From a candidate division WOR-3 bacterium (lineage in GTDB: Bacteria; Hydrothermota; Hydrothermia; LBFQ01), in assembly GCA_027050205.1 (NCBI GenBank), contig JALUCS010000066.1:1-37215 (forward strand): DNA of 37,215 nucleotides, read 5' to 3'. How positions within the stretch are numbered: the stretch's first letter is position 1; each line of letters begins with the position of its first letter. Made by a program: the position numbers and the translations under genes. The notes beneath the pieces are model-generated. The model saw nothing but the letters and a program-made list of their open reading frames with translations. It had not been told where the DNA came from and made no database searches. This document shows, in pieces, positions 6,170-37,215 of the stretch.

Positions 6170-7468
6170 GTCCCCCTTACCTACGGTCCAGGCCCTCCAA
6201 CCCTCCGGCGCCCCCCTGCGGAATATCCCGACGCTATCCACGATGTAGGGCCTCCTAACCCTCTCCCTTATCCTGTCCCAGTCCAACTTGGCGAACTCCT
6301 CCCACGCCGTCAGGATGAGGACGGCATCCACACCGTCCAACGCCTCGTAGGGGTCGTTATAGACCTCAACGGCGTCCCCGAATATAGCCTTGGCGTTCTC
6401 ACCCCCCATAGGGTCGTAGGCCTTCACCCTCGCCCCCTGCTTGCTCATCCTCCTTAGGATGGGGATGGAGATGGAGTTCCGTACGTCGTCGGTGTTGGGC
6501 TTGAAGGTGAGTCCGAGGACCCCCACCGTCTTACCCGTGAAGACCCCACCGAGGGCCTCCTTCACCTTCCAGACCACCCGCCTCTTCTGGGCCTCGTTCC
6601 GCAGGTGGATGGCCTCCAAGAAGTGGGGGAAGTGGCCGTACTCCTCCGACATCCTTATCAGGGCCATCAAGTCCTTGGGAAGGCAGGGGCCGCTGTACCC
6701 CGGACCGGGGCGGAGGTAGTGGCGGCCTATCCTGGGGTCCAACCCTATGCCCTCGGCGACGTCCCAGACGTCCCCGCCCAAGGCCTCGCACACGGCTGCT
6801 ATCTCGTTTATGAAGGACACCCGCGCCGCCAGGAAGGCGTTGGAGGCGTACTTGATTATCTGGGCGTTCTTTATGCTCGTAGTCAGTTTGGGGGAGTTTA
6901 TGCCCTCGTAGAGGGACATCACCTCCTCTGCCACCTCCGGTGTGTCCGCCCCTACCACTATCCTGCTGGGGTTGAGGAAGTCGTATATCCCCGTCCCCTC
7001 CCTCAAGAACTCCGGGTTGTATGCCAGCTCGTAGTCCCTACCCCTCTCCTTACCCTCCTCCCTCATAACTTCCACCATAGCGTCCAGACTCCCCACGGGG
7101 GCCGTACTCCTGACTATGAGGATGGAGAAACCGTCCAAGGCCCTCGCTATGCTCCGGCTGGCCGACAGGAGCTGACTTAGGTCGGCGCTACCGTCGTCGT
7201 CCATAGGTGTATTCACGGCTATGAAGACGTACCTCGCCCCCTTCACCGCCTCCTCCGTACTCAACGTGAAGCGCAGCCTCCCCTCCTCCATAGCCCTCTT
7301 CAGGTAGTCCTCCAGACCCTCCTCGTAGAAGGGAGGCTCTCCCCCCTTGAGCTTCCTTATCTTACCCTCGTCCTTGTCCATCCCCACCACCTCGTGGCCG
7401 AGGGTGGCCATACCCACGGCCGTCACCAACCCAACGTAGCCCGTTCCTATTACCCCTATGCGTGCCAT
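6131..7468 (-). CDS. ugd: UDP-glucose/GDP-mannose dehydrogenase family
   Basis: GTGYVGL, NPEFLREG, KYASNAFLA, GPCLPKD, GLTFKPNTDDVRNS. Confidence 0.92.
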   Translation of the reverse strand: MARIGVIGTGYVGLVTAVGMATLGHEVVGMDKDEGKIRKLKGGEPPFYEEGLEDYLKRAMEEGRLRFTLSTEEAVKGARYVFIAVNTPMDDDGSADLSQLLSASRSIARALDGFSILIVRSTAPVGSLDAMVEVMREEGKERGRDYELAYNPEFLREGTGIYDFLNPSRIVVGADTPEVAEEVMSLYEGINSPKLTTSIKNAQIIKYASNAFLAARVSFINEIAAVCEALGGDVWDVAEGIGLDPRIGRHYLRPGPGYSGPCLPKDLMALIRMSEEYGHFPHFLEAIHLRNEAQKRRVVWKVKEALGGVFTGKTVGVLGLTFKPNTDDVRNSISIPILRRMSKQGARVKAYDPMGGENAKAIFGDAVEVYNDPYEALDGVDAVLILTAWEEFAKLDWDRIRERVRRPYIVDSVGIFRRGAPEGWRAWTVGKGDLPSPEVSPESDV

Positions 7469-20537: not shown

Positions 20538-21432
20538 AGATTTCTTAACGCCCCCGGTCTACGAGGGGAGGGGGAGGTGGGCGAAGGTGATGGAGGTCGT
20601 CCTCAACCTGAAGAACAAGGAGTTGAGCGGCATCCTCCTTCTCCAGAGTTCCGGAAGTAAGGTCTTCAACTTCTTTGACTACGGTAGGATCTTGGGTAGC
20701 CTCGTCTTTGAGGATGGTACCATGCTCGCGTACGATGGGGACGAGTTCTTCCGGGAGAAGAGTGGGATGAGGCACATCCGTCCCTTCCGATACAGGTTTT
20801 CCCCCCTAAACAGCGACGTCGTTATGGTGGTCTCCTCCTTCCATCGGTCCTCCGTCGTTATGGACACCATCACCCCCTTTCCGGATAAGGTGATATCCGA
20901 GCTGTCCTCCCTTGAGTTCTCCGGCGTATTGAGGAGCTACTCCCCTATGCTCTTCTCCGCCGTCTTCCTTGAGGGTATGTTGGCAGGTACCTTCGCCGGA
21001 GGTGAAAGCTTCAACATCAACGACCTCATCAAGCTTGAGGGGGAGCTGTACGAGTTCAAGGTCTTCAGCGTCAAGGAGCAGCTCTACGAGAGGAGCTACG
21101 TTCAACTCTTCAACAAGCTCTACTCCGATCTCAAGCACCTCTACCTACGGATGGCCGGCGTCATAAGGGACTTCCACATCAAGGTCCGCAAGAACATGCT
21201 GGAGAGGAGCTACTCCGACGCCGTCTTAGACCCCATCATCGGCCTCGTTGAACCGACGGAGAACGACCTCCTCTTCCACGTATCTGGGAAGCAGGGTCTC
21301 TACGTACTTGAGAGCTTTCTGGATGTCCTCGCGGACGTACTGCGGGACGAGCTTAACCTATCACCCACGGCCCACAAGAAGTTCCTTGACGAGATACGCA
21401 AGATAAAACAAATCGTGAGGGAGGGCCTATGA
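20497..21432 (+). CDS. Hypothetical protein with duplicated DUF4388/PATAN-like segments
   Basis: LKNKELSGILLL...FFDYGRILGS and LSSLEFSGVLR...VFLEGMLAGT; start probably ATG 20497. Confidence 0.5.
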   Translation: MISLKASDILGTLKDFLTPPVYEGRGRWAKVMEVVLNLKNKELSGILLLQSSGSKVFNFFDYGRILGSLVFEDGTMLAYDGDEFFREKSGMRHIRPFRYRFSPLNSDVVMVVSSFHRSSVVMDTITPFPDKVISELSSLEFSGVLRSYSPMLFSAVFLEGMLAGTFAGGESFNINDLIKLEGELYEFKVFSVKEQLYERSYVQLFNKLYSDLKHLYLRMAGVIRDFHIKVRKNMLERSYSDAVLDPIIGLVEPTENDLLFHVSGKQGLYVLESFLDVLADVLRDELNLSPTAHKKFLDEIRKIKQIVREGL

Positions 21433-34428: not shown

Positions 34429-35149
34429 CCTCGTACTTCAAAACGTAGTACCCCGCAATCACATTCACCTCTACCACCTTCGCCTTACCCTTCTCGGTGT
34501 CTATTATAGCGTTGAGCCTCGGTACTTTCTTGGCCATTTCCTCGTAAAAGGGCATCTCGTACGAGAGGCAACAGAGGAGACGGCCACACGCCCCAGTCAG
34601 TTTATCCGGGGCGGCGAAGAGGTACTGCCTTCGGGCCATATCCTGGGTCACGGATGGGACGTTCTTGAGCCACACGTGGCAGCACAGCTCAAGGCCACAC
34701 CTTCCGAGCCATCCCACACGGGCGGCGTACTTCTGCCTGTGAAGGAAAACGAACTCCACCCTTACGTGGAGGAACTGGGCGATGCCAGCGGCGAGGCTCC
34801 TGGCGTCGTTTATCTGCCTGTCGGACACGTACTCTACCGTAAGTATGCCCCTGTTGAGATCCAGGTAGGCTTCGCCTATCTTCACGTTCAGCCCCCTCTC
34901 CCACAGGATCCCCTTCACCATATTCTTCATTATCCGGAGGATCTCCTTCTTGGAGGCTTCCCGTACGAACTCCGCCCGCTTGAGCTTCTCTCCCTCCTTG
35001 AGGGTCCTAATCCTTAACACCTTCACGAGGCGGTCGTAGTTCTCCCCCTCAAAACGGAGGAAGACGTAGCTACACCTCCCCTTACACCTCAAACGATTGG
35101 TCAGTAGGAGATGCTCAAACCCCCCACCTATGATAGAGGTTTCTATCAC
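34388..35149 (-). CDS. ricT: PSP1/RicT (YaaT) family regulatory Fe-S protein
   Basis: [25 protein letters not shown]; start placed at GTG 35149 overlapping the infA stop (GTGA). Confidence 0.85.
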
Positions 35150-35361
35150 TTGCGGGCGACTATCCGCCCCCTTGTCAGGTCGTAGGCGCTTAGCTCTACG
35201 ACTACCCTGTCTCCCGGAACGATCCTTATCCATCTTACCCTCATCTTCCCGCTTAGGTGCGCCTTTACCTCTATACCGTTGTCCAACCTAACACGGAACA
35301 TCGTGTTGGGAAGCACCTCAACAACGGTACCCTCCATGCGTATGGTACCCTTCTTAGCCAT
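35146..35361 (-). CDS. infA: Translation initiation factor IF-1
   Basis: [24 protein letters not shown]...HLSGKMR...YDLTRGRI. Confidence 0.97.
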
Positions 35362-36127
35362 CTATGTCCTCCGTAAGAATTTCCGGTCCGTCCTCACTGA
35401 TATACACCGTATGCTCGTAATGGGCGGACCAGCTGCCGTCTGCCGTCACGATGGTCCATCCGTCGGACAGGGTGATTATCCGCTCGGTCCCTACGTTTAT
35501 CATCGGCTCTATGGCGAGGGTCATACGGGGCCTTATCCGGCCATCCTTGTCCAGATCCTTGGGGTTGTTGGGTATGACGGGGTCCTCGTGGAGCTCAAGG
35601 CCAACGCCGTGGCCGGTGACGGTTTCCGCAGGGTAGAAGCCGTACCTCCGGGCTACCCTGTAGATGGCGTAGGTGACGTCGGATATGCGGTTTCCGGGCC
35701 TGCTCTCCTCTATGGCGGCGTACAGGGCCTCCTTGGTCGCCCTCATCAGGGTCCTTATCCTCGGCGGCACCTTCCCAAGGGAGAAGGTCCAGGCCGTATC
35801 GGCATGGTAGCCGTCCTTATAGACCCCTACGTCCACCTTCACCAGCATAGGGGCCTTGAAGACCTTACTCCGAAGGGGAAGGCCGTGAACGACCTCGTTG
35901 TTTATGGACACGCACGTGCTGTACCTATACACCTTCCCCTCAACCTCGTAGTTGAGGAAGGAGGGTTCCGCCCCCTGCGAGAATATGAAGTCCCGCAGAG
36001 CCTCATCTATATCCGCAGCCGAAACCCCCTCCCTTACCATCTCTTTGGCTATCCGTAGGGCTTCGGAGGCGATACGGGCGGCCTCACGGAGACCCAATAG
36101 GTCCGTATTACTCTTCAGAATGACCAT
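35354..36127 (-). CDS. map: Methionine aminopeptidase type I
   Basis: [35 protein letters not shown]; real start MVILK at 36127 (the ORF-track extension runs into a CRISPR repeat). Confidence 0.95.
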
Positions 36128-36172
36128 CGCGAGGATGCTATTATACCGTAGAAAGAGGCACGAGGACGCCTT

Positions 36173-36483
36173 GTTTAAATTCCACAAGGTAGATTTCGGA
36201 CCCTCATAGCCATCGCCTACATCACCCCGGAAGGTTCAAAGTTTAAATTCCACAAGGTAGATTTGGGGCAGGCGGTATCGTGCGCGCTGTTGGAGAGGCG
36301 ATCCAGTTCAAATTCCACAAGGCAGATTTGGGACAGGACGAGAACGGAAACCCGCTCCCCTACATTCCCCCGTTCAAATTCCACTAAGGTAGATTTGGGA
36401 GCCTGGTGAAAGTTGGTGTCCCTGTTCGGGATAAGTAGATTGGAGACACGGGAGGTTCAAATCCCACGAGGTAGGTTGTTTTA
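36173..36483 (-). CRISPR. CRISPR array segment 1: 5 variant repeats, the rightmost most degenerate
   Basis: Repeats at 36173, 36241, 36306, 36372, 36455; spacers 39, 36, 37, 53 nt. Orientation inferred from the ATTTGAAC 3' handle on the minus strand. Confidence 0.9.
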
Positions 36484-36497
36484 ATTCTGGATACGCG

Positions 36498-36522
36498 AGC
36501 CTCCATAGGGCTTGCGTTAAAC
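36498..36522 (+). other. Stem-loop in the CRISPR-interrupting insert
   Basis: ACGCGAGCC-tccatag-GGCTTGCGT (9 bp, one G.U), enclosed by TTGTTT...AAACAA. Confidence 0.6.
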
Positions 36523-36625
36523 AACCGCCTCGGACCCGACCCTGAACAGCCGAGAACCATCATTCGCCCCCTATCCCTTTTCGTTCCCGCGTTAAAGAAT
36601 GATTAGGACAAAAAAGGAGGAAAAT

Positions 36626-36706
36626 ATGATTGAAATTTCAATTCCCCTTGCTTTTGTTATGATTTTTGTTTCCATTAAGATTACTATTAACATCCACATT
36701 AGGTAA
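36626..36706 (+). CDS. 26-aa Ile-rich hydrophobic mini-protein MIEISIPLAFVMIFVSIKITINIHIR (putative small toxin or leader peptide)
   Basis: AGGAGG at 36615-36620, ATG 36626, TAA 36704-36706; 11-bp hairpin immediately after the stop. Confidence 0.55.
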   Translation: MIEISIPLAFVMIFVSIKITINIHIR

Positions 36707-36791
36707 GGTTAAATCTAAATAAGGTAGATTTGATCATAGGGTAGATTCAGGGCCGGGGCAGTCTCCCTGCCGAGATAGAACCCCACAGCCA

Positions 36792-37215
36792 GTTCAAATT
36801 CCACAAGGTAGATTTGGGACTTAGGTAGTAGTAGAACCAGATCGGGAGTTCAGATAGGTTCAAATTCCACAAGGTAGATTTCGGACTAAACCTACCCTTT
36901 ACCACCGCTATATCTACACCCTTGTTCAAATTCCACAAGGTAGATTTCGGACAGGACGATGGGCTTGTACTTAGCCGCATCGTCCTCTAGTTCAAATTCC
37001 ACAAGGTAGATTTCGGACCGTTGTATGCCGGTGGTGATGGCCTTCTGGTCATCACGTTCAAATTCCACAAGGTAGATTTCGGACTTGTCAAGTGGCCAGA
37101 TGGACAGGAGAGATGGACAGCGTTCAAATTCCACAAGGTAGATTTCGGACGAAATTTTAATACCTCCGCCAGATAAGGACGAACCTGTTCAAATTCCACA
37201 AGGTAGATTTCGGAC
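36792..37215 (-). CRISPR. CRISPR array segment 2: 7 repeats GTTCAAATTCCACAAGGTAGATTTCGGAC (+ strand), truncated by the window end
   Basis: Repeats at 36792, 36858, 36924, 36990, 37056, 37122, 37187; six unique spacers of 36-37 nt; degenerate half-repeat at ~36737-36753. Confidence 0.97.

Follow-up and report, generated by a model that had tools for sequence, protein, structure and literature searches.

An AGGAGG Shine-Dalgarno (SD) sequence and a 26-codon hydrophobic ORF form a mini-gene cassette that lies between two segments of one CRISPR array in a candidate division WOR-3 bacterium and runs antisense to the crRNAs. The interpretation we tentatively favour, at somewhat less than even confidence, is that the ORF is a type I-like membrane toxin gene silenced by pre-crRNA read-through of its own array. 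The cassette lies in a stretch of 37,215 nucleotides (hereafter the window; GenBank assembly GCA_027050205.1, contig JALUCS010000066.1), and positions without a prefix are those of the window. The organism's own genome is called G000 and the contig that contains the window C66; the portion carrying the leader of the array lies outside the window. An original prediction, made from the DNA letters alone, had placed a mini-gene cassette between array segments of the same orientation, and this was borne out.

The near-canonical repeats of the array are 29 nt long and all share one orientation. Three of them (36173-36201, 36241-36269 and 36306-36334), together with their spacers, make up the distal, trailer-side segment (36173-36334), in which the crRNA sense is the - strand; regular repeats begin again at 36792 in a leader-proximal segment that fills the window to 37215 and extends to C66:37344. 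This second segment (36792-37344) is the likely source of antisense read-through. A leader of ~340 bp, conserved among the genome's arrays of the same repeat family, lies to the right of the window (C66:37345-37690), and the repeats of the genome's other arrays decay at the end opposite to the leader; the crRNAs are therefore read from the - strand and the ORF is antisense to them, as had been proposed. Since the real leader is this different, conserved sequence, which the insert does not match, we rejected the possibility that the insert is an ordinary AT-rich leader remnant or a second usual leader. The genome also contains a second repeat family. Locating the cas genes, a check suggested at the outset, led away from the cassette contig, with two complete type I-B effector operons (Csh and Cst type) on C83 and C132.

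The array is flanked by map, a gene that we take from the appearance of its sequence to be infA, and other non-cas genes, whose names were likewise presumed from their sequences. An array upstream of map was found only in the window species and was absent from 11 of 11 family relatives. In the genus, map (35354-36127) and infA (35115-35360) stand outside the ribosomal-protein operon, and the sister genus retains adk-map. Elsewhere in the genome, the array trailers at G000:C96 (~7290-7430) and C127 (~20940-21090) have a common AT-rich hairpin element of ~130 nt between half repeats, and at G000:C12:1-385 a third repeat type abuts a main-family array, the GTTTAAATTCCAC end being common to both.

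The interval between the two segments is occupied by three decayed repeats (36372, 36455 and 36708) and by half of another repeat (~36736-36753). The first (36372-36401, - strand) has a 1-nt insertion and forms the left edge of the block common to other alleles, the alignments of which have loose ends before 36411. It is followed by a conserved, pseudo-spacer-like segment of 53 nt (36402-36454) that contains a half repeat and has three visible changes across two diverged alleles. The next decayed repeat (36455-36492, - strand) retains the CCAC/GTAG stem and the 8-nt handle and continues into the decayed start of a second-family repeat (36478); judging from the repeat consensus, stem and handle are thought to be what Cas6 needs, and this repeat may thus serve as a Cas6 site. 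At the right-hand edge, the half repeat is joined to a true spacer (36755-36791), the two together spanning 36736-36791 on the - strand.

The SD sequence AGGAGG (36615-36620, + strand) stands 5 nt before the ATG of the 26-codon ORF (36626-36706, + strand), and both features were found as predicted. The peptide has a GRAVY of 1.59, with 17 hydrophobic residues out of 26 and a 15-residue window reaching 2.37; it is Ile-rich and carries basic residues at its C-terminal end. It is therefore of the size and composition of type I toxins (<60 aa, hydrophobic stretch, charged C-terminus), and we regard it as a candidate type I-like toxin. A 35-aa form starting from an upstream in-frame ATG (36599) was rejected, as that ATG is lost in alleles. 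The ORF is locally AT-rich (27% GC), and for 8 of its 9 isoleucines it uses ATT, which the genome employs least often for this residue (7%); tRNA-Ile sequestration was nevertheless rejected as the main mechanism because the ATT codons are never consecutive and codon 2 is Val in one allele. Shuffling the 337-nt insert 20,000 times, which ignores local AT-richness, produced AGGAGG, ATG and an ORF of at least 20 aa in 0.3% of cases, and none of the 20,000 shuffles also reached a GRAVY of 1.5. The genome contains 15 distinct SD-led short ORFs with a GRAVY of at least 1.0, the cassette ORF included. The strong SD had been considered conspicuous among leaderless genes, a view that the genome does not sustain: AGGAGG precedes 97 of 1044 long ORFs and is not rare, as against 343 of 1044 preceded by a leaderless-type -10 box. 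In these leaderless-looking ORFs, about one third of the total, an extended promoter without a clear -35 box lies 7-9 nt before the ATG (e.g., 36140-36145).

Copies of the cassette occur in four vent metagenome runs from two studies, namely X2 (two contigs), X5 (one) and X6 (two) of study P2 and X4 (two) of study P3; labelled runs that contain the organism carry the name 'hydrothermal vent metagenome', and no RNA run is listed among them. The alleles diverge from the window by 6-12%, compared with 3-4% in the adjacent map gene. Three contigs (X2 records 1 and 2 and X4 record 4) span the whole ORF, and in their displayed rows the SD, ATG and stop are unchanged and no internal stop occurs; the SD is unchanged in all alleles seen. 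All three have 12 extra bases near codon 16, in frame, probably through a single event, which would be in frame by chance one time in three. All 20 substitutions of X2 record 2 are displayed, and within the ORF they give I2V, M12V, V15I and H24N and two synonymous changes. In X4 record 4, 36 of 42 substitutions are displayed, with E3K, S5L, I6A, P7L, A9V, F10L, V11I, V15I and H24R in the ORF; for X2 record 1, 30 of 35 are displayed. No visible ORF change replaces a hydrophobic residue with a polar one. The simulated chance that random substitution retains both frame and hydrophobicity was 0.23 for 6 changes, 0.04 for 13 and 0.016 for the 17 pooled sites. Seven changed sites fall within the 11 nt just upstream of the SD block, compared with one in 36607-36628. 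The right-hand flanks differ in X2 record 1, X4 record 4 and X5 record 10. In X4 record 5 the 5' half of the ORF is unaligned and the outer 5' stem has a 3-nt deletion. Run X3 covers map and has no cassette at 85%, which carries no weight either way. Near matches to the true spacer at 36755-36791 (5-6 differences) are present in non-array contigs of X2 and X4, and their flanks suggest a CCG PAM. The cassette is real and probably under selection.

Conservation of the SD and ORF in relatives had been proposed as a check, and besides the in-frame vent alleles, the same layout with a different peptide recurs in a second species of the genus (G003, locus L075 = G003:C169). There, a six-repeat segment is followed by decayed repeats (one of the second family), CCGCGTTAAA, AAAAGGAGG-N-AAATATG, a 24-aa ORF and a GC hairpin with a T-run, all antisense. 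The 24-aa peptide has a GRAVY of 2.16, and its ORF is without the ATT codon bias of the window ORF; the two peptides have no recognisable common sequence. The 5' block shared by the two cassettes scores 30, which was reached by 0 of 2000 shuffles and equalled by 1 of 87 ordinary SD-led upstream regions, so homology between the cassettes is likely rather than proven. Beyond the G003 cassette, the opposite strand encodes a ParE-like protein and one of 206 aa, and the right-hand array follows. This ParE-like toxin and its partner (L075:2291-3179), within an array in G003, have counterparts next to cas2 in the window genome (G000:C83:16612-17500; 55% and 48% identical), and further ParE-like copies occur on C75, C87 and C40.

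In a third species (G006, locus L226 = G006:C8), two second-family repeats are followed, in the place of the leader, by an SD-led hydrophobic ORF of 49 aa (1998-2144, - strand) and a terminator, a locus that we consider a looser analogue of the cassette. The 49-aa protein has three homologs. Arrays were examined in loci of family relatives that cover a subset of the arrays of these genomes. Across 150 segment-end checks, in which some loci appear twice, SD-led ORFs whose 15-residue hydropathy reached 2.2 or more, a cut-off chosen after the list had been seen, were confined to the window, G003 and G006 loci. In all three cases the ORF was antisense and lay at the leader-side end, and the next highest hydropathy was 2.06. 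Two other long array inserts were seen in the genus. About 1.8 kb between two repeats of L067 (L067:3658-5440, G005:C36) encodes proteins of viral or plasmid type, an ATPase-like one of 297 aa and a coiled-coil one of 151 aa, and could be either a very long captured piece or an assembly join, and an insert of ~275 nt lies between two second-family repeats of L212 (G004:C40), without a hydrophobic SD-led ORF.

Wider searches returned little. The peptide matched no family in Pfam or NCBIfam and a single PHROG at E 0.3, and no credible match to a described type I toxin family was obtained with such short queries, which have little power. In its own genome the cassette is single-copy, a two-frame tblastn match on C81/C52 being antisense noise; C81 and C52 of G000 are small contigs with genes for repetitive Thr/Asp-rich proteins; their codon usage is very different, and they may belong to another organism and have been binned here. 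A DNA search of 60 relatives gave only short SD- or repeat-like matches, a combined protein and pattern search of 63 class genomes no useful homolog, and the peptide pattern was found in 1 of 272 phylum genomes, with nothing useful in the 271 searched. Viral contigs had 0 matches for the two peptide patterns, the spacer and the repeat; their 68 motif matches and 8 second-family repeat matches included no such cassette. All 21 matches in JGI metagenomes were AT-rich chance matches without an SD-led ORF, and only the G003 cassette qualified among 17 motif matches in 185,579 genomes. A search of 1.84 billion representatives gave one unconvincing repeat protein. There was no match in the ESM Atlas, plasmids, phages or Rfam, and the exact peptide is absent from the protein collection.

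The + strand of the cassette is predicted to be structured, with a fold z-score of -2.5 against shuffles compared with -0.65 on the - strand; the G003 cassette reaches z = -4.1 and has a 14-bp hairpin within its coding region. A 5' hairpin does exist but had been misplaced at 36498-36522; it lies at 36493-36517, as the inner part of a predicted 24-bp helix (36467-36532; -33.4 kcal/mol on the + strand vs. -24.9 on the - strand). An 11-bp hairpin built from a decayed repeat follows the stop codon, as described originally (36707-36735; two G-U pairs; -9.7 kcal/mol on the + strand vs. -3.2 on the - strand), with no U-run on either strand. The pyrimidine tract was also found (36568-36588, + strand), but as the proposed partner of the SD it is predicted to be the weaker alternative (-10.3 kcal/mol): the SD region (36607-36622) is predicted to pair with codons 6-11 (36642-36658, + strand) at -13.7 kcal/mol, the ensemble values at 37 C being 0.83 for this pairing and 0.00 for the upstream tract. 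The predicted paired fraction of the SD core falls from 0.83 at 37 C to 0.65 at 65 C. Taken by itself, the SD hairpin is marginal at 70 C, with only -1.1 kcal/mol. The ribosome-binding window is not more closed than in 87 AGGAGG-led genes, among which it ranks 53 at 37 C and 42 at 70 C (G003: 79 at 37 C and 73 at 70 C).

Changes in the alleles mostly retain + strand pairing in the hairpins. On reading by hand, those in the inner 5' hairpin keep the pairs (U-G to U-A, G-C to G-U), positions 36632 and 36639, in the hairpin that follows the ATG, have changed in a compensatory way, and with the changes at 36621, 36642 and 36645 the SD helix shifts its register but is uninterrupted; pairs of the lower SD stem are lost in two alleles.

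Judged against the genome's promoter consensus, C..C.[GT]TA.AAT, the cassette contains no canonical + strand promoter or -10 box. The best + strand site in both cassettes is the common motif CCGCGTTAAA (36587-36596 in the window), which resembles the extended promoter element without the final AT of the -10 box and scores 1.6-2.4 (window 1.6), compared with at least 9.7 for 98% of 224 leaderless promoters; only 1 of 191 leaderless-type promoters ends in GA. No - strand promoter near the consensus was found inside either cassette, the best scores being -0.3 (window) and 0.2 (G003), and the strongest of the window candidates (36738) differs in X2, X4 and X5. No RNase III was detected above the family cut-off in this 93.5%-complete genome. 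The sole RNase III-like match (G000:C125:20614-21153) is weak and lies within a 415-aa frame.

We favour a toxin silenced by read-through of the array because the features of the peptide are type I-like and transcription toward the distal spacers, which would start from the leader here and from the ParE-like operon or the right-hand leader in G003, is the only evident source of antisense RNA. The position of the leader would place the pre-crRNA antisense to the putative toxin mRNA, with no internal promoter found, and the original suggestion that the antitoxin is an RNA of the array fits the geometry in its pre-crRNA variant; its pseudo-crRNA variant lacks a match to the cassette above chance. 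The + strand mRNA would come from a weak, non-canonical promoter; it is predicted to form both the long 5' helix and the 3' hairpin, and to pair its SD with codons 6-11. Transcription from the leader promoter would drive a - strand RNA across the cassette to the distal spacers, and cuts by Cas6 at 36792 and at the 36455 repeat could release an RNA of ~340 nt, given that the latter repeat retains stem and handle. Such an RNA would be fully antisense to the message and would block its translation. If transcription of the array stopped, or if the stretch were deleted by recombination between repeats, leftover message would be translated and growth would arrest. The module would in that case be a selfish lock on the array, penalising loss or silencing of that stretch. 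A bolder extension, which we consider conceivable though rather improbable, is that the array has become its own antitoxin: decayed repeats would have been reshaped into the 5' helix and the 3' hairpin, Cas6-processed pre-crRNA would provide the silencing, and the cell would become addicted to transcribing and retaining the array without a guide-promoter match, while the cassette would move between arrays via its flanking repeats and different peptides would be recruited to the same slot in different members of the genus.

Among the alternatives to a toxin silenced by array read-through, a functional but non-toxic element survives best, although we think it improbable. The ORF could encode a small membrane protein, or the cassette could yield a structured antisense RNA that is itself translated and adjusts how the distal array segment is transcribed or processed. 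The strong, conserved RNA structure is consistent with such a role, as is the 14-bp hairpin inside the G003 coding region; moreover, on the crRNA strand the Cas6 stem of the 36455 repeat would be masked by the 5' helix, and the peptide sequence is not conserved between species. However, hydrophobicity and a basic C-terminal end are retained in all alleles and in the analogues, and literature searches found no non-toxic precedent.

Two further explanations are each unlikely. One is a self-contained type I pair with a short antisense RNA of its own, resident in arrays as in C. difficile, to which the pre-crRNA would be incidental. The same features of the protein speak for it, as do the alleles with different flanking spacers and the G003 cassette, which carries a terminator of its own, with the ParE-like toxin and its partner gene standing between it and the right-hand array; the lack of a near-consensus - strand promoter in the cassette, together with the altered 36738 candidate in three runs, argues against it. 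The other, to which we give the same low credence, is a neutral relic, either a captured fragment or a set of decayed repeat-spacer units, that happens to carry an SD and an AT-rich ORF. Such a relic would accord with a peptide pattern restricted to a single phylum genome and matching no family, with the long inserts lacking such a gene elsewhere in the genus (L067, L212), and with ATN/TTN codons, which remain hydrophobic under many transitions. It accords poorly with alleles that differ by up to 12%, where map shows 3-4%, and yet retain their frame, their SD, the hydrophobicity of the peptide and the + strand pairing, and with the repetition of the layout in a second species.

Least probable of all is a Cascade-repressed toxin of the CreTA/CrePA kind, in which I-B Cascade would be guided to the promoter of the mini-gene by a pseudo-crRNA encoded in the decayed repeats or at an array end missing from the assembly. 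Decayed repeats (36372 and 36455) do flank the 53-nt segment, giving the form of a pseudo-spacer between degenerate repeats, and the 36455 repeat retains stem and handle; yet in the arrays as assembled, guide matches to the cassette stay at chance level, the cas operons are on other contigs, and the original CreTA/CreP-like label accordingly had to be dropped. Comparing 207 guides with the cassette yielded 7 seeds with a length of 7 nt or more, where 6.6 were expected, and none of at least 9; 34 second-family guides gave seeds of at most 6, and 713 handle-like sites seeds of at most 7. Gapped and register-free scans returned only palindromes and repeat-derived matches in the window and G003; with gaps allowed, 12 local handles matched only repeat-derived sequence, and 11 G003 handles gave no guide match. 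Some spacers are unseen because the arrays have N gaps and contig ends. Spacer s1, with a 9-nt seed at 36461 (p = 0.007), was rejected as a CreA guide, as its match is the duplicated start of a repeat with a GGA flank; it was also not seen at this position in other runs. The 53-nt segment found no target in the guide-match scans. The peptide, at 26 aa and without a Pfam or NCBIfam match, has no KilAC domain, and its ATT codons, never adjacent and with Val at codon 2 in one allele, do not make it a mini-ORF of consecutive rare or slow codons that could act as an RNA toxin. A better candidate for a CreA/CreP-like arrangement than the window cassette is G006:C8. The RNA that continues from the terminal repeat handle there agrees with the region just upstream of the SD at 18 of 21 nt, position 6 being mismatched and one base bulging out, and none of 300 shuffles did as well; the flank is TGG, not a usual PAM. 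Guide-promoter coupling may therefore exist in the genus, and it was not found for the window cassette.

By analogy, the cassette appears to work most like the CRISPR-adjacent type I modules of C. difficile (CD2517.1-RCd8, CD2907.1-RCd9 and CD0956.2-RCd10; PMC5961336). In these modules, too, a short hydrophobic ORF with a basic C-terminal end adjoins type I-B arrays. Their ribosome-binding site is predicted to be sequestered and antisense control is expected; their toxins, however, are 50-53 aa long and lie beside arrays, and they have convergent antitoxin RNAs of their own that form RNase III-sensitive duplexes (PMC5961336). In contrast, the genes described here are of 24-30 aa, lie between repeats and are built partly from decayed repeats, with no antitoxin promoter of their own and no clear RNase III found. 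In the CreTA systems (PMC9458426; 10.64898/2026.06.02.729485), degenerate repeats likewise adjoin an SD-led mini-ORF with a hairpin and CRISPR addiction is proposed, but CreA needs a pseudo-spacer with a PAM-proximal match to the toxin promoter, inside a cas locus, and CreT acts as an RNA through its consecutive codons, whereas the cassette is away from cas genes, has no guide that we found and encodes a 26-aa hydrophobic peptide. CrePA also ties a protein toxin to repeat-like sequences, CreP being a 103-aa KilAC-domain protein encoded between cas3 and csy1 in I-F loci, with a guide match of 19 nt and the PAM CC; the cassette has none of these features (10.1101/2024.01.05.574328). Regulatory mini-arrays and CreR share the presence of repeat-like units outside the regular array register; they target cas promoters, whereas the best genome match of the cassette pseudo-spacer lies inside a coding region with a CTA flank and none lies in a promoter (10.1101/2023.03.03.530964). 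The cassette is thus not CreTA or CrePA as these are defined in the literature (PMC9458426; 10.1101/2024.01.05.574328; 10.64898/2026.06.02.729485; 10.1101/2023.03.03.530964; PMC12737573). A toxin ORF antisense within an array, with pre-crRNA as its antitoxin, was not reported in the full-text literature covered, in which subscription journals are scarce; the mini-array tables of 10.1101/2023.03.03.530964 could list such loci.

Known addiction modules guard cas genes via a guide RNA (CreTA, CrePA) or merely adjoin arrays (C. difficile). Even on the weaker reading, the cassette adds a putative, unannotated small membrane peptide that recurs at one array position in a vent lineage. It also suggests that the irregular gaps of arrays, which tend to be written off as decay, can conceal genes of a size that gene callers miss. 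If the favoured reading is true, an antisense toxin embedded in an array would guard the array itself, against both repeat-mediated loss of spacers and silencing of crRNA transcription, and would offer a testable answer to the persistence of some old spacers.
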